From Justusliebigvirus VEcB, in the sequence record OZ035773.1: a stretch of 64,000 bases of DNA. The stretch is one strand, 5' to 3'. A program made the translations under genes and the position numbers. Below, piece by piece: positions 2,904 to 40,217 of the stretch. How positions within the stretch are numbered: position 1 is the first letter of the stretch; each line of letters begins with the position of its first letter. The notes under the pieces were generated by a model. That model was given only the letters and a program-made list of their open reading frames with translations, was not told where the DNA came from and ran no database searches.

Positions 2904-3003
2904 TAGGTTTTATAGTTGTACGCTTTAAAGGCTTGACAATTTTTTGTTATGCTTTAAACTATATCTTGAAAACGGCAAAGGCCGCAAACAAAAGGGTAAA
3001 ATT

Positions 3004-3356: not shown

Positions 3357-3368
3357 GTATCTCATAGA

Positions 3369-3389
3369 GCGGGGAAATGGTTTCCCCGC
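3369..3389 (+). promoter_or_regulatory. conserved 5' stem-loop gcggggaaatggtttccccgc
   Basis: one-base variant of the 181 element. Confidence 0.6.
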
Positions 3390-3409
3390 CTTAACAGAAG
3401 AGATAAGAT

Positions 3410-4464: not shown

Positions 4465-4851
4465 ATGAAAACAGAAATCATTATTGAAATCATCAACGGT
4501 TATAAAGAAGCCTTTATTTTTGCCGAACCAGCGACGGATCACAATGGGGAATATATTGAGAATCTAGACGATTATGATTTTTCTCCTAGCGCCCTGAAAC
4601 GTATTACCAGCGATGTGACCGCCTTTTGTGATGCCAATGATGCCGCTATCTCTGAGGCAATGAGCGACGGCGCTACAGCAAACCAGATCGGGAATGATTT
4701 ACATTTTACCAGTAACGGTCACGGCGTAGGTTTTTGGGATCGCCCTGAAATATACACTACTAACACCGCCAACCGTTTAACTGATGCAGCTAAATTAATG
4801 CCATTGGTGCATGCTTACATTGGTGAAGATAATTTGATTTATATTGACTAA
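4465..4851 (+). CDS. hypothetical protein (128 aa)
   Basis: six-frame ORF. Confidence 0.5.
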   Translation: MKTEIIIEIINGYKEAFIFAEPATDHNGEYIENLDDYDFSPSALKRITSDVTAFCDANDAAISEAMSDGATANQIGNDLHFTSNGHGVGFWDRPEIYTTNTANRLTDAAKLMPLVHAYIGEDNLIYID

Positions 4852-4856
4852 AAGTG

Positions 4857-4884
4857 TTGACACCGATCCCCAATATGTTATTAT
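4857..4884 (+). promoter_or_regulatory. sigma70-like promoter (TTGACA 4857-4862, TATTAT 4879-4884)
   Basis: 16 nt spacer. Confidence 0.5.
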
Positions 4885-4894
4885 TTACCACGTA

Positions 4895-4915
4895 GGCGGG
4901 AAATGGTTTCCCGCC
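4895..4915 (+). promoter_or_regulatory. conserved 5' stem-loop ggcgggaaatggtttcccgcc
   Basis: identical to 181 and 1061 copies. Confidence 0.6.
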
Positions 4916-4938
4916 AGGTAATCAAAAAGGTAAATACT

Positions 4939-5328
4939 ATGCGCAACCTGGTTTCTGTTTCTAACGTTGAAAAATTTCAATCCTTACAGGGTATCGTTAA
5001 CAACGTAGCGCCTTTTTTAGTAAACGGCTTGATCGCAAAGATGAAAAATAAACATCATGCGGCATGGTCTGCTTACTGCTTTGATAATGATGAAAAAGCG
5101 GCTGAAATGATGTTAGATATGCTGTTAGATAGTGTAGAAACATCTTTACCGGAAAACATCGCAGAAGAGATCACCTATCGTTATAATATGGCGATCACTT
5201 ACCAGGAGGTTGCGCAATTCAACATGATGGATGATGACGAACAACAGGATCAGGAAATGTTCTGGGAGTATGCGGATCGTCAATCAGCTTTTGATGAAAA
5301 ATTAGCGATGTATTATAACGAATATTAA
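4939..5328 (+). CDS. hypothetical protein (129 aa)
   Basis: track ORF 4903..5328 trimmed to ATG after hairpin. Confidence 0.5.
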   Translation: MRNLVSVSNVEKFQSLQGIVNNVAPFLVNGLIAKMKNKHHAAWSAYCFDNDEKAAEMMLDMLLDSVETSLPENIAEEITYRYNMAITYQEVAQFNMMDDDEQQDQEMFWEYADRQSAFDEKLAMYYNEY

Positions 5329-5345
5329 TACACGGTAAAAGAAAG

Positions 5346-5368
5346 GGGCGCACTAAGCGCCCTTTTTT
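5346..5368 (+). terminator. rho-independent terminator
   Basis: gggcgc-actaa-gcgccc followed by TTTTTT. Confidence 0.6.
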
Positions 5369-5515
5369 GTATTCTTTTTCACAATGGAAGCGACACGTAA
5401 AGAATAGGCGTAAAGGTGGCGTAAAACCATCTAAAACCGACTGTAACCGCTTAAACAAGGTAGGAATGATTAATCACCTTACCAGGATGAAAAAGCTGTT
5501 ATAAAGCTATCTAGG

Positions 5516-19278: not shown

Positions 19279-19500
19279 ATGTCTGTAGTTGTAGAAGGTA
19301 GTATTGGTTTCTTAGTAGATAACCCTCACCCTTTCGTGGTTAAGGTTCATATTCAAGAAAAGGTAAGCAACAATACGTGGTTGTGCTTGTTAGATAGTAA
19401 GATACACTCTTATACAGAGGTTTATCTTCATACTTGGCAAATTGGTACGATAACAGCAGAGGATGAATTGATAATTGAATTATATGAACGAGATCTATAG
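19279..19500 (+). CDS. hypothetical protein (73 aa)
   Basis: six-frame ORF after AGGAGG. Confidence 0.5.
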   Translation: MSVVVEGSIGFLVDNPHPFVVKVHIQEKVSNNTWLCLLDSKIHSYTEVYLHTWQIGTITAEDELIIELYERDL

Positions 19501-19575
19501 ATGACTTTACTAGAGAGTATCGTAGTGTTAATCATCCTTATCATTGTTGTCATAGGATATTTTACAGAAGACTAA
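19501..19575 (+). CDS. small hydrophobic peptide (24 aa)
   Basis: ATG abutting upstream stop; very short, speculative. Confidence 0.2.
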   Translation: MTLLESIVVLIILIIVVIGYFTED

Positions 19576-19581
19576 AAATAA

Positions 19582-19611
19582 AGCCCCTAGAATCGCTTCT
19601 AGGGGCTTTTG
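19582..19611. terminator. bidirectional rho-independent terminator at strand switch
   Basis: agcccctag-loop-ctaggggct flanked by A and T runs. Confidence 0.6.
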
Positions 19612-19676
19612 TTTGCATTAGATAGGGAAACGTATTACTAAAATAAAAAATGCGTTAGAATGCGTTACAGGAGGTT

Positions 19677-19934
19677 TTAGGAATGCATAAAATCTTCTTC
19701 AGGGCAGGTTGAGAGATAAGAGATGCACGTTGGGACAACAACAACATTATCTTTAAGGTTTGCAACCAAGCCTTTTGTAATTCCAGCCACTGCCCCGTTA
19801 ATATCTGCTTGACGGATACCAAAACCTTGTTGTGCGGATAGATAACAAAATCCCTCACCTTTCTGTTGATTATTATTGAAGTAATAAACGTAGTGCATCA
19901 TAAAATGGTCTTTAACGATTTGTTCTGTGGTCAT
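19677..19934 (-). CDS. hypothetical protein (85 aa)
   Basis: six-frame ORF between two terminators. Confidence 0.45.
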   Translation of the reverse strand: MTTEQIVKDHFMMHYVYYFNNNQQKGEGFCYLSAQQGFGIRQADINGAVAGITKGLVANLKDNVVVVPTCISYLSTCPEEDFMHS

Positions 19935-19950
19935 AATATTCTCCTATAAG

Positions 19951-19974
19951 AAAAGGGGCTTTCGCCCCCTTGGT
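19951..19974 (-). terminator. rho-independent terminator ending the Sir2 operon
   Basis: ggggc-tttc-gcccc hairpin with flanking A/T runs. Confidence 0.55.
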
Positions 19975-19978
19975 TAAG

Positions 19979-20791
19979 TTATTTAGTCAAATGATCTTCT
20001 ATCATTTTTATGAAAGCAGGATTGCTAAAAGCATCTGCGGCCTTTTCTCGATAAACAAAAACTCCTCTATCTTCGTAAAGAAGAGTTTCTTCGTAATTAA
20101 TTCCTGGGTTAACAACAATCATTTTTGTACCCATACTAAGTGCAGGGAATAATTCCCAATTAAAATTGATAACTTGGTTTGAACATCCTACTACAACAAC
20201 CAAATCTTGCATGGTCAAAGTATCAAACAAGTGATCCATATCTGCATACAAAGGTGCAGCCTCACCAAAAAATACAACATTAGGCTTCACCCAGTTATAA
20301 TCATCTATGTTTATACTATTGTAACCAATGTCTACCAGTGTTTTGTAATCTCCAGGATGCATACGGTAAACTACTTCAGGAAGATATCCGTGCACGTGGA
20401 TAACAGAATCCCTGTCTACACCTGCTCGCTCTAGTAGATCATCAACGTTTGTTGTCAAGTTTACTACTTGGTTAGGATATTCCTTAAACCACTTTGCTAT
20501 TTGAATATGTGCAGCATTAGGTTGTACATCTTTAAGCTCAACACGTCTTTTGTTATAAAATTCGTGTGTTTTGGCATACAAATCCATACCGTTTTCGTCT
20601 ACACCACCAACCACTGGAAGATCTGGTGATGTTCTCACACGATAACCTGCTTGGAAAGCTCCAATATCGCAGATCTCTTCTAAATCCCATTCTTCCCATA
20701 GGGCACGACCACTATCTGTGTCTGTTCGGAATGTTCGAATCCCACTGTCTGCACTTAAACCAGCTCCACTAACAAAAATTACTCTTCGCAT
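19979..20791 (-). CDS. Sir2 (sirtuin) family protein
   Basis: GAGLSADSGIRTFR Rossmann motif, TTNVD, HVHG, FFGE, VVVGCS; no zinc-ribbon cysteines. Confidence 0.75.
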   Translation of the reverse strand: MRRVIFVSGAGLSADSGIRTFRTDTDSGRALWEEWDLEEICDIGAFQAGYRVRTSPDLPVVGGVDENGMDLYAKTHEFYNKRRVELKDVQPNAAHIQIAKWFKEYPNQVVNLTTNVDDLLERAGVDRDSVIHVHGYLPEVVYRMHPGDYKTLVDIGYNSINIDDYNWVKPNVVFFGEAAPLYADMDHLFDTLTMQDLVVVVGCSNQVINFNWELFPALSMGTKMIVVNPGINYEETLLYEDRGVFVYREKAADAFSNPAFIKMIEDHLTK

Positions 20792-21348
20792 TCAATATCC
20801 TCTTCGTAATCATCATCCCAAGAAGATGCGTCGTAACGCTCTTCCTCTTCGAAATCCCAATTAATTTCTACTCCAAAATCTAAAAACAATTTAACAATGT
20901 TTTCTGTAGAGTAGTATTTATCATAAGCATCAGCTAGTTCCCAATACTTGTCACTCAATTTTTTATATTTAGGATCATTATAGTCATAATCTACTTTATA
21001 ACCATAATCATACATCTCTTGTTCAGCTTTAAGCATAGCTTCTGGCGTAAGAAGATTAGGGAACGGACGATTTCTTTCTTTTAACTTAGAAACAATCCAG
21101 TTTGCAACATTTGCCACTTCACCATCTTGATTATCACCTAAACAACTTGCATAATCTCCATCTTCGTAAGTGCCTAAATCCCCACAGACTTCATGTACAA
21201 TAGATGAATACGATCCACACGTTTCACAATCTGAAAAAGTGTCTACTGTTGTAATATCAATAGATAAAACTGGTAAAGCCATAGCTTCTTTCACACAAGC
21301 CTCCTCATATAATAACATATCATCAAAACCCATATATCCTCCACACAA
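20779..21348 (-). CDS. highly acidic hypothetical protein (189 aa)
   Basis: D/E/Y-rich; stop overlaps Sir2 start by 13 nt. Confidence 0.5.
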   Translation of the reverse strand: MCGGYMGFDDMLLYEEACVKEAMALPVLSIDITTVDTFSDCETCGSYSSIVHEVCGDLGTYEDGDYASCLGDNQDGEVANVANWIVSKLKERNRPFPNLLTPEAMLKAEQEMYDYGYKVDYDYNDPKYKKLSDKYWELADAYDKYYSTENIVKLFLDFGVEINWDFEEEERYDASSWDDDYEEDIECEE

Positions 21349-21387
21349 ATAAAGCCCCTGATTGGGGCTTTGGTTAAGTTTTACGGA

Positions 21388-21996
21388 TTATACCAGACTT
21401 TTAAGGTACTTGTCAAGGGCTTCTTGATCACCTTGACAAACATAGCAACGGAAGTCTTGAGCAGAAGGTTCTTTGTCCTCGTCCCAATCCCAATAAACAG
21501 TACCTTTATAACGTGAACCTGGGAACTCGAAATATGCTGTATGAGTAATATGATGTGGGCCACCCCAAAACTGTGTAAAAGTAAATTGAGGATACGCTGC
21601 TTTAACTGTATTTTCAAACCAAGTTTTACGATCTAACGCTTCGTTTATAAAATAAGCATGGCGTTCCATTTCATCCCAGTTTTTCCAAACGCATTTTTCA
21701 TCCAGAGAAAAAACAAAATCTTCACTGTTGAATTCATCTGTATCTTCCAAAATATCATAATCATGTGCACTAGGTATCCACCATCCAGCTTCTAATAGTG
21801 CTTTCACGGGTACAAAACCTTTTTCAGCATATTGATCAAATTCTTTTACTCTACGTACAGTGCAGTATTCATCTTCACCACCAATGTCCAGTAGACAAGC
21901 ACCTTTGCGTCTTGCTGCAAGACCATGTGTATCAAAAACTACAACACTACCTTCACCATCTTCACGATCTACTTGATATGCAACTTTTTGAGTCAT
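21388..21996 (-). CDS. hypothetical protein (202 aa)
   Basis: six-frame ORF in same operon. Confidence 0.5.
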   Translation of the reverse strand: MTQKVAYQVDREDGEGSVVVFDTHGLAARRKGACLLDIGGEDEYCTVRRVKEFDQYAEKGFVPVKALLEAGWWIPSAHDYDILEDTDEFNSEDFVFSLDEKCVWKNWDEMERHAYFINEALDRKTWFENTVKAAYPQFTFTQFWGGPHHITHTAYFEFPGSRYKGTVYWDWDEDKEPSAQDFRCYVCQGDQEALDKYLKSLV

Positions 21997-21997
21997 A

Positions 21998-22135
21998 TTA
22001 CCCCCAATGTATATGGGAAATTAACCAAAAGATAAATTCCCAAAAACACCAACCAAGAAAAGTTAATGGAATTATAAAAGCTATCAGAGCAGTCTTCCAG
22101 CCTTTCCACAATGTTTCCACTATTCCTCCATACAT
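21998..22135 (-). CDS. small membrane protein (45 aa)
   Basis: manual translation; fills gap between methyltransferase and 202-aa gene; not in track. Confidence 0.3.
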   Translation of the reverse strand: MYGGIVETLWKGWKTALIAFIIPLTFLGWCFWEFIFWLISHIHWG

Positions 22136-23109
22136 TTAAGAATATGTGCAATGACAGGTATAGTCCAACCGTTACCTAACATCTTATATGCTTGTGTGTT
22201 ACTACTCACTTTAAAGTAATCATCTGGCACACCTTGCAAACGGCAACACTCTTTAACGGTTAACTTTCTATAATGTACGCCTTCACTCAATTTTTCAAAA
22301 GCATCTAAATATCTTCCAGGTGGAATGTAAGCTAATAGTACGTCTTTCGGCACAGTCGTGAGGCAACGAGTTTTTTCACTATCCTGAACTTCCAAACAAT
22401 GTACCAAACGATCAGTTTTAGATGTACTACGTTTGCCATTCTCATTAATTCTACGCCCATATATTGCTGCTGGATAAAAAACCAGTTGTCTGCGACTCTT
22501 TTCAAAATACTGTTCTATATTACCACCTTTGGCATAATTTGCATCTATGCAATAAGCCTTATCTCTGTCTACAATACTATCATCTTCAATGATATCTTGC
22601 AACACTTCATTGGTAATATCCCAAGGTTTTATTTCCCAGTTGCACCAGTATAAACGTTGTCTATTCTGTGCTGTGAAATCTGCGGAGTTAATGAATACGG
22701 GATCAACACCTAAGTAACTTGTGATCACGTTTTCCCACTCCACTTTCATCTTAACGTTTTCAAGCATGAACTTAACATTAGGGTTAAACTTTTTAATATG
22801 TTCAAGAATCTCAACATATTCGAAGAATAGCTTAGATCGCGGATCTTGAAAGTTCAAACCTTTACCGGAAGAAGAGAAGCCTTGACACGGACTACCACCT
22901 AACAAAAGATCAATTTCTCCCCACGGGATATCCCATTCTCTCCATTTTGTAACATCACCTAACTGAATAATATCTGGAAAATTTGCTTGGCTTTCAGCTA
23001 TGGCAAATTTGTCTAATTCTGAAGCATAATATGTATCTACTTCAATACCTGCACTTTTTAGCGCAAGCATTCCTCCTGACATACCATCAAAAAGACTTAA
23101 AATTTTCAT
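22120..23109 (-). CDS. DNA (cytosine-5)-methyltransferase
   Basis: FDGMSGG (motif I) and GGSPCQGFSSSG (PCQ catalytic motif). Confidence 0.85.
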   Translation of the reverse strand: MKILSLFDGMSGGMLALKSAGIEVDTYYASELDKFAIAESQANFPDIIQLGDVTKWREWDIPWGEIDLLLGGSPCQGFSSSGKGLNFQDPRSKLFFEYVEILEHIKKFNPNVKFMLENVKMKVEWENVITSYLGVDPVFINSADFTAQNRQRLYWCNWEIKPWDITNEVLQDIIEDDSIVDRDKAYCIDANYAKGGNIEQYFEKSRRQLVFYPAAIYGRRINENGKRSTSKTDRLVHCLEVQDSEKTRCLTTVPKDVLLAYIPPGRYLDAFEKLSEGVHYRKLTVKECCRLQGVPDDYFKVSSNTQAYKMLGNGWTIPVIAHILKCMEE

Positions 23110-23111
23110 TA

Positions 23112-23522
23112 TTACTTCTTCTCCTTAACACTAGCTGGTAATTCTGCCTTGAGGCAGAAGTTTAAACGGTAAGCCTCATTCTCATTTAAAAGTACAGATT
23201 CACACGATAACCAGAACAAGAGATCCTCAATACCAGGGCTGTTAAGCCAACAGTGCAGAAGAGAATGTTGTTCTATATCAATGTAATTTAGTAACAAGGC
23301 TTGTAAGGCGTAACTAGTTCCTGTCGTTTTTGCTTTTTCAAGGATGATATTGTGTTTACTAACAACTTTCTTCCTAAGACCAAACCATTTATTAACAACA
23401 ACAGTCTCTTCTTGTAGTTGTTTTCTTATTTTCTCACATTCTTTAACTACAATCTGCATCTTATCCACCGCTGATTGAAGTTGTTCTTTTGTTGGGTTTA
23501 CAAAATAATCACTATAATACAT
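23112..23522 (-). CDS. hypothetical protein (136 aa), first gene of operon
   Basis: six-frame ORF abutting methyltransferase start. Confidence 0.5.
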   Translation of the reverse strand: MYYSDYFVNPTKEQLQSAVDKMQIVVKECEKIRKQLQEETVVVNKWFGLRKKVVSKHNIILEKAKTTGTSYALQALLLNYIDIEQHSLLHCWLNSPGIEDLLFWLSCESVLLNENEAYRLNFCLKAELPASVKEKK

Positions 23523-23579
23523 GCTAAACTCCTCTTCTGTTTTTCTGTAGTTTATTCTAAAAAACTGGTGTTGTCAACA

Positions 23580-23601
23580 AAAAACCCGCCGAAGCGGGTT
23601 T
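23580..23601 (-). terminator. rho-independent terminator
   Basis: aacccgc-cgaa-gcgggtt; minus-strand TTGACA lies just downstream. Confidence 0.55.
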
Positions 23602-23604
23602 ATA

Positions 23605-23862
23605 TTATTCTACAGGAACTTCTTCACCAAGAGAAACTTCTAAACGAAATGCTTTACTTTCAATACATTCACTACCTTTTAGAAAATCAAATTGCACTAT
23701 AGACTGACTTAATAGAATAGATAGAATCACATCGCAATCTTCACTAGGAGCTAGATGTTTGTATTCTTCCTTCAAGGTAACATCATAAAAACATAAATCC
23801 CCTACTCCTAGTTCATCCCATCCTTCCCACGCATCTACAAAGTTAAACTCTAAACCTTTCAT
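23605..23862 (-). CDS. hypothetical protein (85 aa)
   Basis: six-frame ORF. Confidence 0.45.
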   Translation of the reverse strand: MKGLEFNFVDAWEGWDELGVGDLCFYDVTLKEEYKHLAPSEDCDVILSILLSQSIVQFDFLKGSECIESKAFRLEVSLGEEVPVE

Positions 23863-24383
23863 ACAACCTCCTCGTAATTGTTATTGTGTTTTACTGTCTC
23901 AACATACAATAAAGATTCCATCTGTAATACATTACCAGAAATAATAAATCCATAAGACATTTCAGATGTGTCTATATCATATGCCCCGTCTTCCGGTTTA
24001 GCAAAGTGTAAAACTATTTCATCTGGGTTTTCTTCATCCCATAGTTTAGAAATTTTCCGAACCAGGATGTTAGCTAAAATAGTTGACATTCGGGATAAAG
24101 CTGTATCCTCATATCTTTTAAAACCTAGCCAATAGAGGTTAAGAATTTCTACTTCTTCTTGTGTTAAGTTTTTGTCTAAAGTAATCAGATCTGTAGAGCA
24201 CGGCGTTTTTGTTGAACCTACTGTTACAAAACCTGGGGTGTTATGAAAAACAATCTTAACTTTATCACGTATAAAGTTTAAACCTTGTGCCTCAACTATA
24301 TATTGTATTGTAGGTACAATATCGTTTGTTACATCAATAAAACTATCTTTAATGACGCTTATATTATTTCTGGACAAGACCAT
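23859..24383 (-). CDS. hypothetical protein (174 aa)
   Basis: six-frame ORF. Confidence 0.5.
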   Translation of the reverse strand: MVLSRNNISVIKDSFIDVTNDIVPTIQYIVEAQGLNFIRDKVKIVFHNTPGFVTVGSTKTPCSTDLITLDKNLTQEEVEILNLYWLGFKRYEDTALSRMSTILANILVRKISKLWDEENPDEIVLHFAKPEDGAYDIDTSEMSYGFIISGNVLQMESLLYVETVKHNNNYEEVV

Positions 24384-25026
24384 TCTCCTCTAAAATAGGC
24401 TTAATAAATTCGAAAATTTGTTTTTTACTTTTACCTCGAATATTAAAACAAGGAACATTAAACTTTTTAGCCAACATCCAAGCTGTTCTTGTACCACCTA
24501 AAGGATCTCCATTTTTATCTGTGTTTGCACAAGCTAAAAGAAAACAAGATGGTTTTGGATTCTCAAGATCTTTTCCAAGAACTTGGTGGATATTTCTTTG
24601 ATGTAATTTTTTAGCACCTTGAGATAATCTGTCCCAAGCTGGATGCAATTCTTTTGCATATTGTAAGGTTAAAGCATAGTTTACACTATCTGGTCTGTCA
24701 AGAACAATAACCTCTCCCTCTATTTCATTACCTTTAAATGAGAGCCAAGGGATGTATATTTCTTTCTTTGTATTGTTCCCACTATCATATACCCCGCATT
24801 CAAATGCGGAATCTGCACCTTCTGCTTTACCAGATCGCAAAATGAACCATGTAGATAACCATTTTGCAACAGATACCATAGTATCCCATTCTTCGTCTGT
24901 AATATCTCTGCTACCAACACCTGTGTAGAATAAATCGCTCATGGTTTTCTCCTTAACAAGTAATATTGGGAGTAACAATTGGATTAACAATTGGAGTAAT
25001 AGGGTACGTAAACCAAGGGCTTCCAA
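24364..25026 (-). CDS. putative Rossmann-fold nucleotide-binding protein (SLOG/DprA-like); true start probably internal
   Basis: GVGSRD and SGKAEGADSAFECG glycine-rich motifs; weak call. Confidence 0.35.
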   Translation of the reverse strand: MEALGLRTLLLQLLIQLLLPILLVKEKTMSDLFYTGVGSRDITDEEWDTMVSVAKWLSTWFILRSGKAEGADSAFECGVYDSGNNTKKEIYIPWLSFKGNEIEGEVIVLDRPDSVNYALTLQYAKELHPAWDRLSQGAKKLHQRNIHQVLGKDLENPKPSCFLLACANTDKNGDPLGGTRTAWMLAKKFNVPCFNIRGKSKKQIFEFIKPILEENGLVQK

Positions 25027-25273
25027 TTTCCCAAGGATAATAAGGTCTACGAGGATCGTATGGAGGAGTTACTTCAGGCTTTTTCCAAATCTCCGCTAGT
25101 TGTTTCTTCCATTTATCCCTTGCTGTCTCATTATCTTCATCCAACTGTTCATCATTATCTTTTATTTCTGGTTTTGGAAATAAAAGCTCTTTGACTAACT
25201 CAACATCTTCCGTCTCAATAGTAGTTTCTTTCGTAAGTTCTCCTACTGTTTCTTTAATTGTGATTTTATACAT
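24953..25273 (-). CDS. hypothetical proline-rich protein (106 aa)
   Basis: six-frame ORF; overlaps neighbour so one start is wrong. Confidence 0.35.
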   Translation of the reverse strand: MYKITIKETVGELTKETTIETEDVELVKELLFPKPEIKDNDEQLDEDNETARDKWKKQLAEIWKKPEVTPPYDPRRPYYPWEIGSPWFTYPITPIVNPIVTPNITC

Positions 25274-26019
25274 TAGTCCTCCTCTAAAGTAGAATAAAAT
25301 TGTAACGTATTTGAATCATCAAAATATGCAAAGGTTAAATTACCATTGAAGCAAGATCCTGTGTCCATATATACCCTATTACTGCTAATCACAGGTTTAG
25401 GAACATAAGAATGTCCGTGAAATACATAATCTACTCCTGAAACCCTAGGAAGAAGAATCCCTTCAAGTGCGCAATCTATCATATCACGATCCCACATTAA
25501 AGATTCTGTGAATCGAGAAACTTGCTCTTTATTCATATTCAAACAAAATGGCAAAACTTCTGTCACTGGTAAATGTTCCAAAACTGAAGGATACCCACCG
25601 TGAATAAAGCCTAGTTTCATATTACGATAATTGACAACAAGTACAACAGGTAAATCTTCTAGCATCAAAGCAAGAGCAGTTGCACCCTCTTCTCCACACT
25701 CGTCTAGAACTGTATGGCCTCCGTTCTGAAACCAACATTCGTAATATCGTCTATCACCTTCTAGCAACCCTTTAATCATCATATCTTCATGATTTCCACG
25801 AATACCATAACGATTTAGCTTTCTGGTGAATTCAACAACACAACGAAAATTCTGCTTGCCGCGATCTGTAAGATCTCCTAAAGATACAACAACATCTTGA
25901 TCTCGGATACCTAAAGTATTAACACCTTTCTGGTACAAATCAAAACAACCATGTAAATCACCAATAATAAACAGGTCTTGATCATCTTTTACACTAATTT
26001 CTTGATATACTAGCATCAA
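25273..26019 (-). CDS. Ser/Thr protein phosphatase (lambda-type metallophosphatase)
   Basis: GDLHG, GDLTDRG, GNHE motifs. Confidence 0.8.
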   Translation of the reverse strand: MMLVYQEISVKDDQDLFIIGDLHGCFDLYQKGVNTLGIRDQDVVVSLGDLTDRGKQNFRCVVEFTRKLNRYGIRGNHEDMMIKGLLEGDRRYYECWFQNGGHTVLDECGEEGATALALMLEDLPVVLVVNYRNMKLGFIHGGYPSVLEHLPVTEVLPFCLNMNKEQVSRFTESLMWDRDMIDCALEGILLPRVSGVDYVFHGHSYVPKPVISSNRVYMDTGSCFNGNLTFAYFDDSNTLQFYSTLEED

Positions 26020-26352: not shown

Positions 26353-26925
26353 TTAATGTGTTAATGAAACTGCATAACTAAACACAGGTTCAGATATTAC
26401 ATCGGCTACAGTAATAAAAACGTCCTCGTCTTGCGTTGTTTCTACACGACATACAGTTACACCATTTACCACGAATTCAACGCAATGTGGAATATCTTCA
26501 CAAACGAAGGTAGTGTAAGTAACACCCAAAGCATCATACAAAGATTTAACAGTGTTTGCAAGTGCCGCAGTTTCTTCTTTTTCTGAGACAATGAATGCTG
26601 TAACAATAAGATTGTTTGCATAGTTTAGACTGTCCTCTATAGCCAATGATTTACAAGGTAGTAATGCAAAATATTTACCTGGTTTAATCAGACCTGCTTC
26701 CCATTGATTCAAAATTGCCTGGGATGGTTTAGTAATATAAAATAGATTTTCACTTGGGTTATCAATATTACTTCTGGCGATACAACGTGAAGGATTATTA
26801 ATATCAAATACATGATCAAAATCTACACAAACAGGTAAACTGAAAGGTGTAAATTTTTTACCTAATAATCCTATGGCTGATAATATGTTTGCTGTGCTTA
26901 TCTTCCCGTTAAAAGCTAAACGCAT
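26353..26925 (-). CDS. hypothetical protein (190 aa)
   Basis: six-frame ORF. Confidence 0.5.
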   Translation of the reverse strand: MRLAFNGKISTANILSAIGLLGKKFTPFSLPVCVDFDHVFDINNPSRCIARSNIDNPSENLFYITKPSQAILNQWEAGLIKPGKYFALLPCKSLAIEDSLNYANNLIVTAFIVSEKEETAALANTVKSLYDALGVTYTTFVCEDIPHCVEFVVNGVTVCRVETTQDEDVFITVADVISEPVFSYAVSLTH

Positions 26926-27149: not shown

Positions 27150-27812
27150 TTATTTAATATTCAATTTTGCACAAAGACGTTGTACCGCTTTGGCATCGAA
27201 CAAACTCCCACGAATAGTTCTCTTTCCTGATTCATTCAGATGCTTTGCAATCGTCATATATGGCGTTTTACAAGCTCTGTATGCAACTAAAGAATCTTTT
27301 AAAGAAAGCGCAAACTCTCTTGAGCGTTTTGCTTCTTCCGTTTTCGTATAGTCTGTTCTTTTGTATTTAGGGTTTGCTGCACCAAGAAGCGTTCCCTTCG
27401 CTTTTGCTACCTTAAGGCTCTTCTTAACACGATCAGATATTGCACGAGCCTCTTCTTCTGCCAGAACTGCTAAAATATTTATTATCATATTTTCAGCGGA
27501 GGGCATAGTTGCTATTCGTACATTAATCATCTCTAACAAGGTTGCAACAGAAGCTGTGTTACGTCCAAGACGGTCAACCTTAGCAACAACAAGTGTAGCA
27601 CCTGTTTCTTTGCAAAGATTAACAGCTTTTACAAGCTCTCTACGTTGCTTCCAATCGCCTTTACCCGAATAAAACTCTGCAAAGCTACCTATAATAGTAT
27701 AATTTTCTTGTGAATCCAGGAAGCGTTGAATATCTGCTTCCTGTGATTCTATACCATACTGGTTGCCTTGTTGTTTCTTCTTAGAAAGTCGATGATATAG
27801 TACAAACTTCAT
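27150..27812 (-). CDS. serine recombinase (resolvase/invertase family)
   Basis: YHRLSKKKQQ catalytic-Ser region and VAKVDRLGRN motif; AGGAGG RBS. Confidence 0.8.
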   Translation of the reverse strand: MKFVLYHRLSKKKQQGNQYGIESQEADIQRFLDSQENYTIIGSFAEFYSGKGDWKQRRELVKAVNLCKETGATLVVAKVDRLGRNTASVATLLEMINVRIATMPSAENMIINILAVLAEEEARAISDRVKKSLKVAKAKGTLLGAANPKYKRTDYTKTEEAKRSREFALSLKDSLVAYRACKTPYMTIAKHLNESGKRTIRGSLFDAKAVQRLCAKLNIK

Positions 27813-31917: not shown

Positions 31918-32184
31918 TTACTCCGCAATCTGAGCCATGAATTCACGTAGTTCAGAAAAACCTCCTACGTGGGTTAGCTGTTCACCATCTTCCACAAAAA
32001 TCTGAGGAAATGTGCGTGGTAGAACACCTGTTTTCTCTAAAACCAGATTCTGAATCTGATCTAAAGAATAGTCTTCATCTAAGGTAAGGTATTTAAAATC
32101 CTGTTCACGCTGTTCTAGTAGAATCTTAGCGTTAGTGCAGAAAGGACAATTTGGTTTACCGTAGATAATAAAATTCATTTTCAC
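31918..32184 (-). CDS. glutaredoxin (NrdC-like redoxin)
   Basis: CPFC active-site motif; 88 aa. Confidence 0.75.
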   Translation of the reverse strand: MKMNFIIYGKPNCPFCTNAKILLEQREQDFKYLTLDEDYSLDQIQNLVLEKTGVLPRTFPQIFVEDGEQLTHVGGFSELREFMAQIAE

Positions 32185-33011
32185 TCCTTGTTTAAAAGTA
32201 TAGTTAAAGTTCTTACAATACCGCTATCAACACTTCGCGGATTTAAAGTAGGATCTGTTTTTAAATAAGATGTTGCTGGTCTGACTGCTTTGGAATTATA
32301 GGTTGAAGCAGACACAGGATTAACTGTAACAGATAAATCTATAACAAGAAATATCTTACGTGCAAAATCATACCAAGAAATATAATCTGCACCTGCATAG
32401 TGTACAATTTTACTATTTACACCATCTTTTACAAGTTTAAAAATTGTTTCTGCAAGATCAGGTGCATAAGTAGGACATGACAAATGATCACATACTACAT
32501 TAAATTCTTTTTGACCACCGTTGTAGCGTTCCAACATAGTTTTCAAAAAGTTATGTCCAAATTCACTATAAACAGAAGCTGTTCTGATAATAAGTGCTGT
32601 AGGACAAACTGTTTGTACTAAAGTTTCACCTAATTGTTTACTGTAACCGTAGGTGTTCAAGGGGTTTGTTTTACTATCTTCTGTGCCAGCAACATGCCCA
32701 TCAAAAACATAGTCTGTTGAAATATGTACAAACTGTATCAGTAAATCATTACATGCTTTGGCAATGTTTGTTGCACCGTATGCATTAACATTTATACAGG
32801 TGTTAACATCTTCTTCAGCTTTATCTACTGCCGTGTAAGCCGCACAATTCACAACAACATCAGGCACATGCTGTACAAGACTATTCATAACATCTTTAAA
32901 GTTGGTAATGTCTACATCACTTGCTTCAATCAAAATAACATCTTCGGGCGCAACTTTTGCCAAAGACTGTCCTAATTGACCTTTTGAACCAAAGATTAAA
33001 AATTTTGTCAA
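32181..33011 (-). CDS. rmlD: dTDP-4-dehydrorhamnose reductase
   Basis: N-terminal GxxGQLG Rossmann motif; YTAVD; operon position. Confidence 0.8.
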   Translation of the reverse strand: MTKFLIFGSKGQLGQSLAKVAPEDVILIEASDVDITNFKDVMNSLVQHVPDVVVNCAAYTAVDKAEEDVNTCINVNAYGATNIAKACNDLLIQFVHISTDYVFDGHVAGTEDSKTNPLNTYGYSKQLGETLVQTVCPTALIIRTASVYSEFGHNFLKTMLERYNGGQKEFNVVCDHLSCPTYAPDLAETIFKLVKDGVNSKIVHYAGADYISWYDFARKIFLVIDLSVTVNPVSASTYNSKAVRPATSYLKTDPTLNPRSVDSGIVRTLTILLNKE

Positions 33012-33562
33012 AATATGATCTCCTTTAGTGTTTTGGCTTGCTGATCTTTTTGTGACAAGATAGGTTTAAAATTAATATCATTAAAGATTAAATCAAAACC
33101 CCAATCAATATTGATATCTGGATCATTCCACGCAAGACTACACTCTGAAGTCGGATCGTAATATTCTGTACATTTATATTCAAAATCAGCAATGTCACTA
33201 ATCACAACAAAGCCATGAGCGAAACCAGGAGGAATCCAAAATTGTGTTTTATTCTTTTCAGATAAGAGAACACCTACCCATTCTCCAAATGTTGGACTAC
33301 CAACTCTAATATCCACAGCAACATCATAAACTTCACCACGAACACAACGTACTAACTTCCCTTGTGGGTTTTTCTTTTGAAAATGAAGCCCACGTAGAAC
33401 TCCTCGGATAGAACGTGAATGGTTATCTTGGACAAAGTTTTGTTTACCTATGTATTGATCATATAAAGCCTGATTAAAACTTTCTAAGAAAAAACCACGT
33501 TCATCTCCGTAAACGTCTGGTTGAATGATCAACAAATCTTCGATTTTTGTTGCTTGAATCAT
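33008..33562 (-). CDS. rmlC: dTDP-4-dehydrorhamnose 3,5-epimerase
   Basis: cupin-type RGLHFQ region; size and operon position. Confidence 0.8.
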   Translation of the reverse strand: MIQATKIEDLLIIQPDVYGDERGFFLESFNQALYDQYIGKQNFVQDNHSRSIRGVLRGLHFQKKNPQGKLVRCVRGEVYDVAVDIRVGSPTFGEWVGVLLSEKNKTQFWIPPGFAHGFVVISDIADFEYKCTEYYDPTSECSLAWNDPDINIDWGFDLIFNDINFKPILSQKDQQAKTLKEIIF

Positions 33563-33574
33563 TTAATCTCCCCT

Positions 33575-34444
33575 TTATTTTAATTTAAGTAAATACTTGC
33601 CGTAGTCTGTTTTACTTAAAACCTCTCCAGAACTTTTTACAGAATCTAAAGTAATCCATTCATTTTTAAAAGCAATCTCTTCTAGGCATGCAACCTTCAT
33701 ACCTTGTTGCTTTTCTATTGCATGAACAAATTGAGATGCTTCCATAAGACTTTCATGTGTTCCTGTATCCAGCCAAGTGAAACCTCTTCCTAGCTTACAG
33801 ACACGTAAAGCCTTTTCTTTCCAGTACATCTCATTTATATCTGTGATCTCTAACTCTCCTCTAGCAGAAGGCTTAACGCTTTTAGCTTTCTGTATAACAG
33901 AATTATCGTAAAAGTACAAGCCTGTAATTGCATAGTTGCTTTTTGGTGCTTTTGGTTTTTCTTCAATACTTACCACTGTACCTTCAGAATCAAACTCAAC
34001 AACACCAAATCTTTCAGGATCATTTACGTGATACCCAAAAATATTAGCTCCACCATTCTTTTCAATATGTTCTTTAGCAGAATCTAAAATGCTACCAAAA
34101 CTCTGACCAAAGAATAAATTATCACCTAGCACAAGTGCTACAGAATCTTCACCAATAAAGTTCTCACCAATAATAAACGCTTCTGCTAAACCTTTTGGGC
34201 TATCCTGTATTGCATACTGTAGGGAAATACCAAAAGAAGAACCGTCACCTAGAAGATTTACAAAATTAATTTGATCTTCTGGTGTTGTAATTATTAGTAT
34301 TTCCCTAATTCCAGAAAGCATTAGGACAGAGAGTGGATAATAAATCATAGGTTTATCGTAAATTGGTAATAGTTGTTTACTAACCCCTTTAGTAACTGGG
34401 TAAAGTCTTGTTCCACTACCACCTGCTAAGATAATACCTTTCAT
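33575..34444 (-). CDS. rmlA: glucose-1-phosphate thymidylyltransferase
   Basis: [16 protein letters not shown] signature. Confidence 0.85.
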
Positions 34445-34452
34445 ACTCCTCC

Positions 34453-35442
34453 TTAAACTTTATTTTCCCACCACTCTTTGTTATCTACATACCAATCAAT
34501 GGTTGAATAAAGTTTTTCTTCAAATGTGCCTTTAGCTTTCCACCCTAATTCCTTTTCAATCTTATAAGGATTCACTTCATATCTTAGATCATGCCCAGGC
34601 CTATCTGTAACCATCTCAATGAGGCTACAAGCATCTGTTTCAGATGGATATACCGCATCCATATAATCACAAATCATATAGATTACATCAATATTAGTTC
34701 TAGGGTTTCTGCTCCCAATATTATATGTTTCTCCAGATTTGCCTTTAGTTACTACTAGGTGTAATGCTTCTGCGTGATCGTCAACGTATAGCCAGTCTCT
34801 TACTTGAAGACCATTGCCATAAACAGGGATTGGTTTATTCATTAAGATATTTGTTATCGTCTTAGGTATTAGTTTTTCTGGATGATGATACGCTCCAAAA
34901 TTATTTGAACAATTTGTTATAACTGTCGGAATACCATAAGTACGATGCCACGCTCTTACCAAATGATCGCTTGCAGCTTTAGATGCGGCATATGGACTAC
35001 TTGGTTTATAAGGATTCTGTTCTGTAAACGGATAATCCCCTTCTTCCATATCACCATACACTTCATCTGTTGAAATATGATGAAACATTTTAAGATTTGA
35101 TTTATCTCCCATTAAACGAACAGCTTCTAGAAGATTAAATGTTCCAACGATATTTGAATTTATAAAAACACTCGGTGATGCTATTGAATTATCTACGTGA
35201 CTTTCTGCTGCAAGATGCATTATATAATCTGGGTTAACATCTGCCACAATCTTAGCAGTTAACTGAGCATTTGTCAAGTCAACACGACAAAACTTTACAT
35301 TAGGTGTTTCTGATAAATTTCTAGGGTCTGAAGCGTAACCCCATTTATCTATAACGTAAATATCATTCTTAGTATTTTTAGCCAGGAAACGAACTACTGC
35401 ACTTCCAATAAAACCTAAACCACCTGTTACTAAGTATTTCAT
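34453..35442 (-). CDS. rmlB: dTDP-glucose 4,6-dehydratase
   Basis: TGGLGFIGS Rossmann motif; YAASK catalytic motif. Confidence 0.85.
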
Positions 35443-37990: not shown

Positions 37991-40217
37991 CCTCTTGAGC
38001 GAGTGAGGTTGCCGATTTTGTTCTGCTATTTAGATAGTACAAAGATTTACCACCAAGTTTTGCAAACTGAAGAATATATTGCATTTCTGATTTAATGGAT
38101 AAACGACCACCTTCCATCTTAGAATAGTCAATCCACTTATCACATGATGCACCTTGATCTAAGAATTTAGTCAACAGTCCATATGCTTCAGCCATATCTT
38201 TATCTGGCGTATCCCAAGCCGATTGGTAAATATCTTTTAGTTTATCGTAGTCTGGCACAATAAACAGAACATTACCCTTTTGGCTTTGTTTATAAACTAT
38301 AGTATCACGTACAGGATACACAGAGTTAGTCGTATTACTTACAAGACTACTGGACTCATTTGGAGCAATAGCTGCTAATACGCTATTTCGGATACCACCT
38401 TGTGCAATGATATCTTGTCGTAAACCTTCCCAATCCATTTTAAGTTTAAAATTGCCAATATCGTCTACAGCTTTAGCGTAGGTGTCAATAGGCAACCATC
38501 CTTCAGGCCATTTGGTTTTATGCATCCATTCTGCATTACCTTTCTCTTTTGCCAAACGAAGAGAAGCTCTTGCTAACCAATAATAATGTCTTTCTGCTAA
38601 TTCGTGAATTAGTTTTTTGCCGTAAGGATCTGAATAAGTAACAAAATTACTTGCCAGATAATGTGCAAGGTTTGTAATACCTACACCGATAGATCTACGT
38701 GCTTTAGCAGTGATTTCGTTATGTTTAAACGGATACTGCATTGTTTCAATAACATTATCAATAGTTAGAACGGTATAATATGCAACATCTTCATATTCTT
38801 CTGGTGTAACACGACCAGCTACAATAGAAGACAGGAAGCATAATGCCAACTCTTGATCTTCTGTATTCTCACCTGTGAAAAGATCAGTCATATTGTGAAA
38901 TGCTTTCGTAGGTAAGAAAATTTCTTGGCACAAGTTTGACTGGTAAATAACATCCTTAAACGGAGTATGCTTATTAGCATTATCCGCAAAGAACATATAA
39001 ATACGTCCTGTCTCTGCTCTTTGTGTAATAATTTCTGCCAGAAGATCTCGTGCTTTTACAAACTTCTTCTTAATTCGTTTGCGACTAACTTTTTCATATA
39101 CTTCTTCAAACTCTTCCTCGCTTTTATAAAGCGCCTCATAGAGTTCTGGTGCTTCGTCATAACTGACTAGCATCCAATCTTTACCTTTTGCTGCACGGCG
39201 CAGGAAAGCATTGTTTACTACAATAGAGTAATCAAGTTTATCTACTCGTTTTTCACTAACAGTAGTTGGGTTTTTCAAACGTACCAGATCTTCAAAATCA
39301 GGTTCTAGTATTGTAAACGTTACCGTTGCACTTCCACCACGACTTGCTTGTTTTGATGCTCCAACACTTGTTTCCATCCATTTCAGATATGGTAAAAGAC
39401 CACCGTGAACGATACGGTTGTTCTTAACACCTTGTCCTGTAGCACGGGTTTGGAGGTTAACACCAATACCTGCATTATTCAATGTATATTCATGAGCAAG
39501 ATAGTTAGCAATTGCTAAAGATTCTGCTGTATCATCTGCTCTAAACAGACAACAAGAAGCACTACCTTTAATCTTAGTACGCAACGTTGTTAAATAAGGC
39601 GATGGTAAATTAATCTTAAGATCACTTACGTAGGTATATAGACGTTTAATGTCTTCTACTCTGCGATCTTTTGGTTGAATTTCCATTACCTTCATTGCTA
39701 CACCAATGAATAAAAACTGTGGTGATTCAAAAACAACATTATTGATCGCATCTTTCACAAGATACTTATCAACCATCTGGCGCAGTACGGAATAACCATA
39801 AGTTAGGTTTTTATCGTGATTGACAATTTTACCAATCTCAATAATTTCTTCTTCTGTATAATCCATCTTCCCCCAATAGCCTTTACTTACAGACATATTG
39901 TAGAAATCCAGGAGGGAGGGGATATTGTGATATCCCCCATGAGCCTGTTTATAGATCATACCAAGAAGTAACCGACCTGCCATATCACTATATGCCTGAT
40001 CTTTCTTATCAATACATGCTGCTATCATAGCTTTATGTAAATCACGAGTAGGCACACCGTCGTAACAACGTTTAACAGCTTCGAGTTCAATTTCAGACCA
40101 ATTTAATTTACCAGCAGCAAACTCTGACCATTTACGAAGTTTTTCTGGATTAAATTCTTCTTTCTTGCCGTTTGTTTTTGTTACATAACGGATAGATTTG
40201 CTTAGATACTGAGTCAC
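37956..40217 (-). CDS. nrdA: ribonucleotide reductase large (alpha) subunit
   Basis: 753 aa; N-terminal ATP-cone-like region, conserved cysteines, C-terminal CxxC. Confidence 0.9.
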   Translation of the reverse strand: MTQYLSKSIRYVTKTNGKKEEFNPEKLRKWSEFAAGKLNWSEIELEAVKRCYDGVPTRDLHKAMIAACIDKKDQAYSDMAGRLLLGMIYKQAHGGYHNIPSLLDFYNMSVSKGYWGKMDYTEEEIIEIGKIVNHDKNLTYGYSVLRQMVDKYLVKDAINNVVFESPQFLFIGVAMKVMEIQPKDRRVEDIKRLYTYVSDLKINLPSPYLTTLRTKIKGSASCCLFRADDTAESLAIANYLAHEYTLNNAGIGVNLQTRATGQGVKNNRIVHGGLLPYLKWMETSVGASKQASRGGSATVTFTILEPDFEDLVRLKNPTTVSEKRVDKLDYSIVVNNAFLRRAAKGKDWMLVSYDEAPELYEALYKSEEEFEEVYEKVSRKRIKKKFVKARDLLAEIITQRAETGRIYMFFADNANKHTPFKDVIYQSNLCQEIFLPTKAFHNMTDLFTGENTEDQELALCFLSSIVAGRVTPEEYEDVAYYTVLTIDNVIETMQYPFKHNEITAKARRSIGVGITNLAHYLASNFVTYSDPYGKKLIHELAERHYYWLARASLRLAKEKGNAEWMHKTKWPEGWLPIDTYAKAVDDIGNFKLKMDWEGLRQDIIAQGGIRNSVLAAIAPNESSSLVSNTTNSVYPVRDTIVYKQSQKGNVLFIVPDYDKLKDIYQSAWDTPDKDMAEAYGLLTKFLDQGASCDKWIDYSKMEGGRLSIKSEMQYILQFAKLGGKSLYYLNSRTKSATSLAQEDEESGCEACKM

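Follow-up and report, generated by a model that had tools for sequence, protein, structure and literature searches.

A zinc-less, CobB-type sirtuin in a run of seven genes of a phi92-like Escherichia coli phage, read as two promoter-defined units

The window analysed here, a stretch of 64,000 nucleotides (OZ035773.1), comes from a phi92-like E. coli myophage (Justusliebigvirus), and the region considered is an ordinary stretch of such a genome that has been annotated before. Judging from the sequence, its seven co-directional genes (Table 1) would form two promoter-defined units and not one operon, and one of them encodes what is, by its motifs, an intact-looking CobB-type sirtuin and not a defence-style NAD+ destroyer. 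The sirtuin is most likely an NAD+-dependent deacylase or ADP-ribosyl transferase. The reading as a whole, which combines the two-unit layout with a phage-clade sirtuin acting as a deacylase and possible NARP1-type recycling, has in our judgement about an even chance of being right. An earlier note, made from the letters of the window, had described a six-gene operon with a Sir2 protein likened to those of defence systems. Its observations are partly confirmed, in that the open reading frames, the domains and the border hairpins stand, while the gap-free run, the end of the unit and the 45-aa gene do not; its interpretation is partly supported.

The region corresponds to gp038-gp044 of phage phi92, and more than 100 GenBank records annotate it. 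Phi92-like phages match it at 96-99% identity and carry annotations for the methyltransferase and Sir2. It appears to be the distal end of a long leftward block of early or metabolic genes. All six minus-strand reading frames listed earlier, from the 136-aa protein to the sirtuin, are present, the acidic gene being open from 21348 or, with the phi92 start, from 21333. The 136-aa protein has no match in a Pfam search, and in the sister genus Phapecoctavirus a 25%-identical homologue occupies the same position, as does a 47%-identical counterpart of the 85-aa protein. The 45-aa hydrophobic frame, previously called a small membrane protein, is doubtful as a gene: comparison with three relatives gives 3 synonymous vs 5 non-synonymous codon changes, a ratio in which purifying selection is not seen, the phi92 record flags it with "bad prodigal statistics", and Pfam and PHROG-type searches return no family match.

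Table 1. Features of the leftward run and its borders, in window coordinates.
Feature	Position	Strand	Evidence or remark
Terminator-like hairpin closing the upstream unit	23582..23601	-	RNA fold -13.2 kcal/mol, z -4.0; annotated terminator in phage Paula
Sigma-70-like promoter P1, TTGACA-17-TAAACT	23549..23577	-	Motif search
136-aa protein (phi92 gp044, phrog_16551)	23112..23522	-	ORF call, phi92 annotation, PHROG match
Putative orphan C5 cytosine DNA methyltransferase (phi92 gp043)	22120..23109	-	PF00145 1.4e-43, full length
45-aa hydrophobic ORF (phi92 gp042)	21998..22135	-	ORF call; doubtful gene
202-aa protein (phi92 gp041, phrog_8514)	21388..21996	-	
Internal promoter P2, perfect TTGACA-18-TATAAT + TG extension	21387..21416	-	Overlaps stop codon of 202-aa gene
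Hairpin between P2 and acidic gene	21351..21371	-	-13.3 kcal/mol; weak terminator or 5' stabilising hairpin
184-aa acidic protein (phi92 gp039, phrog_9509)	20779..21333	-	phi92 start, GGAGG ribosome-binding site
270-aa zinc-less class-III-type sirtuin (phi92 gp038, phrog_2162; annotated as matching T5.102)	19979..20791	-	PF02146
Hairpin 3' of Sir2, weak T-tract	19953..19971	-	-13.7 kcal/mol
85-aa protein (phi92 gp037), last gene of leftward block	19677..19934	-	ORF call, phi92 annotation
Strong bidirectional terminator, meeting point of convergent gene blocks	19580..19609	.	-22.1 kcal/mol, z -5.9; Paula annotates both strands

At its upstream border the run is as the earlier note had it, with a hairpin followed by a sigma-70-like promoter near 23580. 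It does not, however, proceed without gaps, as had been stated: P2 and a further hairpin sit between the 202-aa and the acidic genes. P2 is the sole perfect sigma-70 consensus promoter within the 64 kb, and the internal hairpin equals in stability those at the presumed operon borders (-13.3 vs -13.2 and -13.7 kcal/mol). Both elements are kept in Phapecoctavirus, the promoter as TTGACA-18-TATAGT and the hairpin as a counterpart at L004 4479-4503, and by splitting the run they argue against a single six-gene operon. The conservation of P2 is partly explained by its -35 hexamer, which falls within conserved codons (ALDK). Sites of the form TTGACA-N16-18-TAnnnT number 27 in the window vs 4.3 expected, and only two of them, at 39820-39847 and 44916-44944, are off the local coding strand. 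At the downstream border, the terminator proposed at 19951 exists as a hairpin whose position is also kept in Phapecoctavirus (L004 5803-5820), but the unit does not end there, the 85-aa gene and then the bidirectional terminator following it. From the promoter at 23577, the first unit would comprise the 136-aa protein, the methyltransferase, the doubtful 45-aa frame and the 202-aa protein; from the consensus promoter at 21416, the second would comprise the small acidic Cys3 protein, the sirtuin and the 85-aa protein.

The Sir2 assignment made earlier is borne out by PF02146 (80.7 bits vs a cutoff of 24, E 1.7e-22), the only Pfam match at E <=0.1, and by phrog_2162 (2e-103); the phi92 protein is 99% identical. 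Among solved structures, E. coli CobB (1S5P, 1e-18) is the nearest, and in the alignment with it GAGxSxxSGIRTFR, TQNID/TTNVDD, HxHG and FGE are matched, Y79/R82 falling on CobB Y92/R95. With CobB (PDB 1S5P, 6RXJ) and human SIRT5 the protein has in common GAGxSxxSGIxxFR, PNxxH, the Asn/Asp of TQNID, HxHG, the FGE loop, GxS and Tyr-x-x-Arg. Unlike them, it lacks all four zinc-ribbon cysteines, the length of the segment being kept, has T for the Q of TQNID and carries an insertion of ~25 residues in the helical subdomain. CobB-type deacylases supply its best NCBIfam models, and every CobB cutoff is missed (NF001753, 105 vs 243 bits; NF040867 CobB, 85 vs 320 bits). The loss of the zinc ligands, correctly read from the letters, extends over 32 diverse phage homologues, in which H134-K169 is free of cysteines bar single scattered ones; the cysteines of the window protein are C41 and C203 only. 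Invariant in the same 32 sequences are G9-A10-G11, S13, F21-R22, Y79, R82, N115, D117 and H134-G135. Degenerate catalytic His and Asn positions had been named as one observation that would speak against the Sir2 proposal; Asn115, Asp117 and His134 are intact, so that test leaves it standing. Codon changes (44 synonymous vs 11 non-synonymous) indicate purifying selection.

The sirtuin belongs to a large phage-specific clade nearest CobB/SIRT5 (class III), which has kept a ribbon-length segment and lost its zinc ligands. The clade (PHROG 2162), which has been described computationally (PMC9503650), includes proteins matching T5.102 and those of rV5, Mydo and PVP-SE1 (gp109). It occurs in 982 phage records, from T5-, rV5-, KVP40-like and jumbo phages, and carries T for the Q of TQNID throughout. 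The window protein is 47-61% identical to T5-like, Mydo and rV5-like proteins over >98% of its length and 64% identical to that of Phapecoctavirus. In its subfamily, the gene stands apart from RNA ligase and cREC, is paired with that of the acidic Cys3 protein and has its own promoter.

It appears most likely that the enzyme binds NAD+, releases nicotinamide and hands ADP-ribose on to an acceptor that is anionic, for which a negatively charged acyl-lysine, e.g., succinyl-lysine, on host or phage proteins is favoured; the enzyme would then be a deacylase that remodels acylation in infected cells. The Tyr-x-x-Arg pair for acidic acyl groups is present as Y79 and R82, and the corresponding CobB residues have been reported to be important for desuccinylation (PMC6636992). 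Against this reading count the T that replaces the Q of TQNID and the fact that no biochemical characterisation of a clade member was found in the literature searched. The sirtuin also resembles SirTM, in that it may transfer ADP-ribose and is one of a small pair of genes, and differs from it in that Pfam finds no macrodomain in the six genes or the scanned flanking genes. The NAD+ reconstitution pair noted earlier at 55493-58191 is indeed present, a Prs-like gene (PF14572/PF00156) lying directly upstream of a Nampt-like gene (PF04095) in the NARP1 architecture. NARP1 (Adps + Namat) has been shown in BASEL phage Bas63 (genes 79-80), and the operon is reported from four BASEL phages (bioRxiv 10.1101/2024.02.11.579819). 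Judged by sequence, the pair in the window matches that of Bas63 in its two-gene layout and its Pfam annotation. The BASEL phi92-like phages EmilieFrey and PaulScherrer are close relatives of the window, and EmilieFrey carries the pair. A NARP1-type pair could rebuild NAD+ from nicotinamide and, after hydrolysis of O-acyl-ADPR, from ADP-ribose. The pair and Sir2 are 35 kb apart and on opposite strands, and of the 1565 phage records with the Prs/Adps family most belong to groups that the Sir2 tally does not contain.

The upstream neighbour of the sirtuin is acidic, as had been noted (pI 4.05, 25.5% D+E), and the proteins neighbouring it are likewise acidic (pI 4.1-4.8). An invariant C36-x2-C39...C64 is seen in the family alignment, together with an acidic, aromatic, disordered tail. 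The family is confined to phages, with 19 representatives among 1.84 billion proteins. Its AF2 model has a pLDDT of 84 and a pTM of 0.73, and a fold search with it returned no match outside the family. The 13-nt overlap with Sir2 exists in the window but is not conserved, Paula and EmilieFrey having GAA>TAA 8 codons earlier. The two genes had been expected to occur together in relatives, and they do adjoin each other across two genera, within Stephanstirmvirinae only.

An unlikely alternative is the role in RNA repair that Iyer, Burroughs, Anantharaman and Aravind put forward in 2022 (PMC9503650), in which the sirtuin would use NAD+ in a KptA/Tpt1-like manner to strip the 2'-phosphate that host metal-independent nucleases leave when they cut tRNA or mRNA, with phage cREC, phosphoesterase, kinase and RNA ligase as partners. 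That proposal was based on gene neighbourhood alone. In rV5-like (Vequintavirus) and Mydo-like phages, whose sirtuins are 47-56% identical to that of the window, RNA ligase 1 and a cREC domain protein are encoded one or two genes away, as seen in isim and Mydo, and the placement of the sirtuin gene between RNA ligase/cREC and DNA ligase favours the RNA-repair role. The window holds the full set of partners (cREC 53114-53488, phosphoesterase 52046-52597, Rnl1 51112-52044, kinase 50707-51111), but Sir2 stands ~30 kb from this cluster under its own promoter, outside the neighbourhood conserved elsewhere, and T5-like and KVP40-like phages have no RNA-ligase neighbourhood around their sirtuin. The invariant Tyr/Arg pair, whose ligand in class III enzymes is an anionic group, could equally bind phosphate; no sirtuin is known to act on an RNA 2'-phosphate. 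The sirtuin fold might instead serve mainly for binding, as a sensor or sponge for NAD+ or ADPR derivatives that blunts host nucleotide-signalling immunity. Phages deploy sponges against ADPR-derived signals, and the clade-wide Q>T in TQNID could alter catalysis. Such a function is nevertheless extremely improbable, since His134, Asn115, Asp117 and the FGE loop are strictly invariant across the clade, which points to catalysis, and Pfam, PHROG and PADLOC searches reveal no similarity to known sponge families.

The earlier note had pointed to a defence-like NADase effector for Sir2, which the acidic protein could hold in check as an inhibitor or DNA mimic, in a possible exclusion, anti-defence or host-takeover module. 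We consider this very improbable. The protein does share with the Sir2 domains of ThsA, DSR1/DSR2, SIR2-HerA and SPARSA the Rossmann-type NAD+-binding sirtuin superfamily and the lack of zinc cysteines. Unlike them, it is CobB-like with an FGE peptide-binding loop, matches neither PF13289 nor the PADLOC models for ThsA, DSR, SIR2-HerA or pAgo-Sir2 (a 13.8-bit partial match to PDC-S65 being the only one), and has no fused or adjacent SLOG, HerA, pAgo or DSR C-terminal domain; it is a single-domain enzyme that stands alone, lacking both a sensor domain and a partner. The acidic gene lies directly upstream of Sir2, sharing its promoter in a hairpin-bounded unit in two genera, and its product evolves fast (38% identity between genera vs 64% for Sir2; 21 synonymous vs 17 non-synonymous codon changes), both of which speak for this reading. 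Nevertheless, it is absent from ~850 of the 982 Sir2-bearing phage records, and in Klebsiella phage FKP3 an HNH endonuclease gene separates the two. The family and a phage sirtuin are found in the same genome in Stephanstirmvirinae, Erwinia pEa_SNUABM_12-like and PBECO4-like jumbo phages, yet in the jumbo phages the genes are 30-36 kb apart, and distant members of the family have DUF5856 and thymidine kinase, not Sir2, as their neighbours. Also speaking for the defence reading, a weak fold match to the acidic protein was seen in Serratia phage BF, for which a sirtuin has been reported (PMC9503650). Charge is the only evidence for a DNA mimic or inhibitor, the protein having no fold or sequence relation to known mimics of the Ocr/ArdA kind. 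A functional module of all six genes likewise finds no support at the Phapecoctavirus locus, where no homologue of the methyltransferase is detectable.

In the window, the C5-methyltransferase call of the earlier note holds (PF00145, 150 bits; TIGR00675, 141 bits vs a cutoff of 100.65), and the motifs FDGxxGG, GGSPCQ (with the catalytic PCQ) and ENV align with DNMT3A, M.HaeIII and M.HhaI. In its full-length domain, catalytic motifs and size (~330 aa), the protein resembles M.HaeIII/M.HhaI and phage anti-restriction methylases, and as in orphan type II C5 methyltransferases, a cognate endonuclease is absent nearby. Unlike Dcm, it falls outside the Dcm equivalog (PRK10458, 30 bits vs a cutoff of 710). 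The enzyme looks intact and would most likely serve self-protection against restriction; its codon changes number 49 synonymous vs 9 non-synonymous.

The 3.75-kb region around the Sir2 gene shares 96-99% identity along its entire length with that of about 50 E. coli phages of Justusliebigvirus (phi92-like, Stephanstirmvirinae), whose records label it 'DNA methyltransferase', 'Sir2 NAD-dependent deacetylase' and hypothetical proteins. It corresponds to gp044-gp038 of phi92 and to bas61_0191-0186 of the BASEL phage EmilieFrey. The genes of the region are real and already public; one comparative-genomics paper and the public annotations between them cover its content. The window contributes little beyond these sources, namely a sirtuin that appears class III-like, not defence-like, and has its own strong promoter, an acidic neighbour that bears a CxxC...C motif and seems to be a companion specific to this lineage, and a set of six genes without functional unity.

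An earlier note, made from the sequence alone, had described the region as a six-gene operon whose Sir2 was likened to the NADase domains of defence systems; the observation proves partly right. The six minus-strand ORFs are present where it placed them, as are the hairpins on either side and the promoter-like site (23577-23549). The genes were said to run without gaps, which is not so: a 54-nt spacer separates the gene for a 202-aa protein (stop at 21388) from the gene of the acidic protein, whose ATG at 21333 is the start annotated in phi92 and is preceded by GGAGG. P2, the internal promoter at the edge of this spacer, is the sole perfect consensus promoter within 64 kb, and the internal hairpin equals in stability the border hairpins of the earlier note (-13.2 and -13.7). 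The sister genus Phapecoctavirus shares this layout despite much lower nucleotide identity, i.e., a promoter in the final codons of the 202-aa gene, a hairpin, the acidic gene, Sir2, a hairpin, a small gene and a bidirectional terminator. The conservation of P2 is not independent evidence, since its -35 hexamer lies within conserved codons. Because of the spacer with its hairpin, the perfect promoter at its edge, the equal hairpin stabilities and the Phapecoctavirus layout, the region is read as two putative units: P1, the upstream promoter, would serve the 136-aa gene, the methyltransferase, the 45-aa ORF and the 202-aa gene, and P2 the acidic gene, Sir2 and the 85-aa gene. Such an arrangement speaks against a single operon, as P2 and the internal hairpin would split the run and a seventh gene precedes the strong terminator.

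Features of the studied region and of related loci in the window
Feature	Coordinates	Strand	Remark
Promoter P1	23549-23577	-	
136-aa gene	23112-23522	-	
Methyltransferase gene	22120-23109	-	
45-aa ORF	21998-22135	-	
202-aa gene	21388-21996	-	
Promoter P2	21387-21416	-	perfect, TTGACA-18-TATAAT with TG extension; reaches edge of 54-nt spacer
Internal GC-rich hairpin	21351-21371	-	inside 54-nt spacer; -13.3 kcal/mol
Acidic protein gene	20779-21333	-	184 aa
Sir2 gene	19979-20791	-	270 aa
Seventh gene (85 aa)	19677-19934	-	
Bidirectional terminator	19580-19609		truly strong structure, -22.1; after seventh gene
ATP-dependent DNA ligase	48850-50013	-	
P-loop kinase	50707-51111	-	
T4 Rnl1-type RNA ligase	51112-52044	-	
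Calcineurin-like phosphoesterase	52046-52597	-	
cREC domain protein	53114-53488	-	
Prs-like gene	55493-56386	+	297 aa
Nampt-like gene	56458-58191	+	577 aa

Over the whole window, sites of the form TTGACA-N16-18-TAnnnT are enriched about six-fold (27 against 4.3 expected) and all except two lie on the local coding strand, their orientation tracking the genes (plus to ~15 kb, minus from 21 to 55 kb, plus beyond). The phage clearly depends on host sigma-70 promoters. The 10-mer AACTTAACCA abuts both the internal hairpin (21371-21380, -) and the hairpin that follows Sir2 (19971-19980, -); the window as a whole shows no enrichment of it (10 matches, 8.2 expected, with up to one mismatch allowed), and its place before two hairpins may be chance. 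An Rfam scan of 19400-23800 gave nothing near threshold.

A six-gene module uniting the upstream genes with Sir2 is not supported. The methyltransferase, of the C5 type, is complete in length, keeps its catalytic motifs intact and has no endonuclease partner; it differs from three relatives by 49 synonymous and 9 non-synonymous codon changes. At the sampled Phapecoctavirus locus, tblastn found no homologue and an unrelated 227-aa gene stands in its place, and the enzyme appears to behave as an exchangeable anti-restriction accessory. The 45-aa ORF is doubtful as a gene, since it has no family match, its phi92 annotation reads 'bad prodigal statistics', and its codon changes versus three relatives comprise 3 synonymous and 5 non-synonymous ones. 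Neither the 136-aa nor the 202-aa protein could be assigned to a family or fold; the latter is well conserved (57-69% identity to relatives in the sister genus and in the divergent phage FKP3).

The sirtuin itself matches only PF02146 in Pfam and no defence Sir2 model in PADLOC, leaving the suggested likeness to defence NADases unsupported. Its top NCBIfam models are CobB-type deacylases, every score being under its cutoff, and in PHROGs it falls in phrog_2162 (2e-103). Among solved structures the best match is E. coli CobB (1S5P, 1e-18), with GAGLSADSGIRTFR aligned to GAGISAESGIRTFR, TTNVDD to TQNIDN, IHVHG to IHMHG, VVFFGE to VVWFGE and FYNKRR to FYNARR. From the last pair, Tyr79 and Arg82 correspond to CobB Tyr92 and Arg95, which have been reported to be important for desuccinylation (PMC6636992). 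Among 32 homologues (identity down to 55%), G9-A-G, S13, F21-R22, Y79, R82, N115, D117, H134-G135, K169-P-N-V, E177, G202, S204 and N228-P229 are invariant, so the catalytic residues are not degenerate, and none of the 32 carries the CxxC...CxxC zinc ligands, in agreement with the earlier note. The segment between HG and KPN spans 35 residues as against 38 in CobB, and the ribbon module has probably been retained without its metal. Compared with three relatives, the gene shows 44 synonymous to 11 non-synonymous codon changes. This zinc-less Sir2 looks active, and on it, as on the NAD+ rebuilding pair, the interpretation in the earlier note finds support.

The acidic protein (pI 4.05, Asp+Glu 25.5%) had been suspected of being a DNA mimic, an idea for which its charge is the sole support; the neighbouring proteins are acidic too. 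Its family is very small (6 clusters among 5.8 billion proteins, 19 representatives among 1.84 billion) and has C36, C39, G59 and C64 as its invariants (DCETCG ... GxxAxC). After this motif the chain is helical and then ends in a disordered acidic tail, in which a Trp or Tyr is conserved. AlphaFold models the protein with confidence (pLDDT 84, pTM 0.73), placing the CxxC at a predicted beta-hairpin turn; the model has no match in the PDB and, in a Foldseek search of the viral structures of BFVD, matches only uncharacterised members of its own family. Evolution of the protein is fast, with 21 synonymous and 17 non-synonymous changes. The BASEL label 'putative aminoacyl-tRNA synthetase' was rejected, as its only basis is probably a PheRS_B1 match of 14.8 bits, below the cutoff of 26.8; a second gene so labelled (26353-26925) is unrelated. 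GenBank records such as MG065645 and MG065689 ('Campylobacter phage', host Campylobacter jejuni) carry an acidic protein ~95% identical to that of E. coli phi92-like phages and are probably mislabelled or contaminated.

Could this protein supply the missing zinc ribbon in trans? Residues 26-57 weakly resemble the bL32 zinc ribbon, below threshold, and there seemed to be a fourth conserved cysteine, C182. The latter is an artefact, since it comes from an out-of-frame reading of the start of Sir2 (ATGCGAAGA or ATGCCAAGA), and it is lost in natural isolates: a nonsense codon 8 residues earlier in Paula and EmilieFrey removes both the C-terminal Cys and the 13-nt overlap with Sir2. The idea was dropped on these grounds; further against it, Sir2 keeps a ribbon-length segment and most members of its clade have no such partner. 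The acidic gene adjoins Sir2 in Justusliebigvirus and Phapecoctavirus, between which the acidic protein is 38% and Sir2 64% identical. Klebsiella phage FKP3 has a gene annotated as an HNH endonuclease (2854-3504 of the locus) exactly between the two, in Erwinia and PBECO4-like jumbo phages they are 30-36 kb apart, and ~850 Sir2-bearing records lack the acidic family at tblastn sensitivity. Distant family members adjoin a DUF5856 gene, near thymidine kinase. A lineage-specific functional tie to Sir2 is possible, though rather improbable, and an obligatory inhibitor or antitoxin is unlikely. The FKP3 HNH ORF begins with ATGCCAAGA, the Sir2 start sequence of relatives, as if the insertion had captured it. 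The DUF5856 (ferritin-like) gene recurs 5' of distant members in jumbo and T4-like phage contigs (L009 5513-5956, L010 634-1080, L013 1071-1511), thymidine kinase being a few genes off, and in Erwinia phage pEa_SNUABM_12 a NADAR gene lies three genes from the family member.

By record counts and sampled rows, on which the phyletic picture of the sirtuin clade and its associated families rests, tblastn places Sir2 in 982 phage records, including T5-like Demerecviridae, Vequintavirinae (rV5-like, Mydo, PVP-SE1-like), Stephanstirmvirinae, KVP40-like Schizotequatrovirus and several jumbo phages; the Mydo record labels its orthologue as matching T5.102. The only functional proposal for phage sirtuins found in the searchable literature is that of Iyer et al., in which most are KptA-like and act in RNA repair (PMC9503650), on the basis of an RNA ligase/cREC neighbourhood. 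The order in an rV5-like phage, which Mydo resembles, is RNA ligase 1, cREC domain protein, Sir2, a second Sir2-like gene and DNA ligase, and the window phage encodes all of the proposed partners, 30 kb from Sir2. Neighbours vary among lineages: in a T5-like phage they are small hypothetical genes by the anaerobic NTP reductase and primase, and in phi-Grn1 a topoisomerase. Protein deacylation is the preferred candidate activity, ahead of the removal of an RNA 2'-phosphate; NAD+-dependent ADP-ribosyl transfer to an anionic acceptor would be the most likely mechanism of this presumably early-expressed, CobB-like sirtuin. The RNA-repair-type cluster at 48850-53488 (-) is complete in the window, with the sirtuin outside it, whereas in rV5-like phages the sirtuin lies inside. 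In the rV5-like phage isim, the second gene labelled 'Sir2-like' (4776-5489), directly 3' of the sirtuin, has no Pfam match.

An NAD+ rebuilding pair had also been noted in the window, and its gene architecture does match that of NARP1 (Adps + Namat). The NARP1 study set out from an operon of just this type, present in four BASEL phages; in Bas63, for which the chemistry was shown, 'Prs' works as an ADP-ribose pyrophosphate synthetase and 'Nampt' as a nicotinamide ADP-ribose transferase, which together rebuild NAD+ out of ADPR and nicotinamide (bioRxiv 10.1101/2024.02.11.579819). EmilieFrey (Bas61) carries the same pair, with tRNA genes downstream. The sirtuin reaction would free nicotinamide and (O-acyl-)ADPR, products that the pair could in principle recycle. 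If sirtuin and NARP1 formed such a closed NAD+ cycle, ADP-ribosyl-transfer chemistry (deacylation, or the stripping of anionic marks off protein or RNA) would run even where defence systems destroy the NAD+ of the cell. This reading, together with the acidic protein as a dedicated sirtuin regulator or substrate adaptor under the common strong early promoter, seems very unlikely. Members of the Prs/Adps family are found in 1565 phage records, foremost in groups missing from the Sir2 tally (Staphylococcus, Pseudomonas), so the two are not tightly linked.

A zinc-less CobB-like sirtuin is carried by about a thousand sequenced lytic phages (T5-, rV5-, phi92- and KVP40-like and several jumbo phages), and no experimental function of phage sirtuins or of phi92 Sir2 was found in the searchable literature. 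A clear assignment, whether as host-protein deacylase, RNA-repair enzyme or NAD+ consumer, would show phage use of NAD+ beyond mere NAD+ defence.

Further genes lie nearby. Just upstream of the studied region (24364-24942 and 25273-26019, -) are a calcineurin-like Ser/Thr phosphatase and a 192-aa protein without Pfam match, which relatives label DprA-like, 'DNA processing protein like fold'. A serine recombinase (27150-27812, -; Resolvase N-terminal domain, 1.7e-21) is found in this seemingly strictly lytic phage. At 32181-35442 (-), four genes match by position EmilieFrey genes annotated as the dTDP-rhamnose pathway (RmlA-D-like); on that annotation, the phage carries a sugar-nucleotide pathway unusual for phages.
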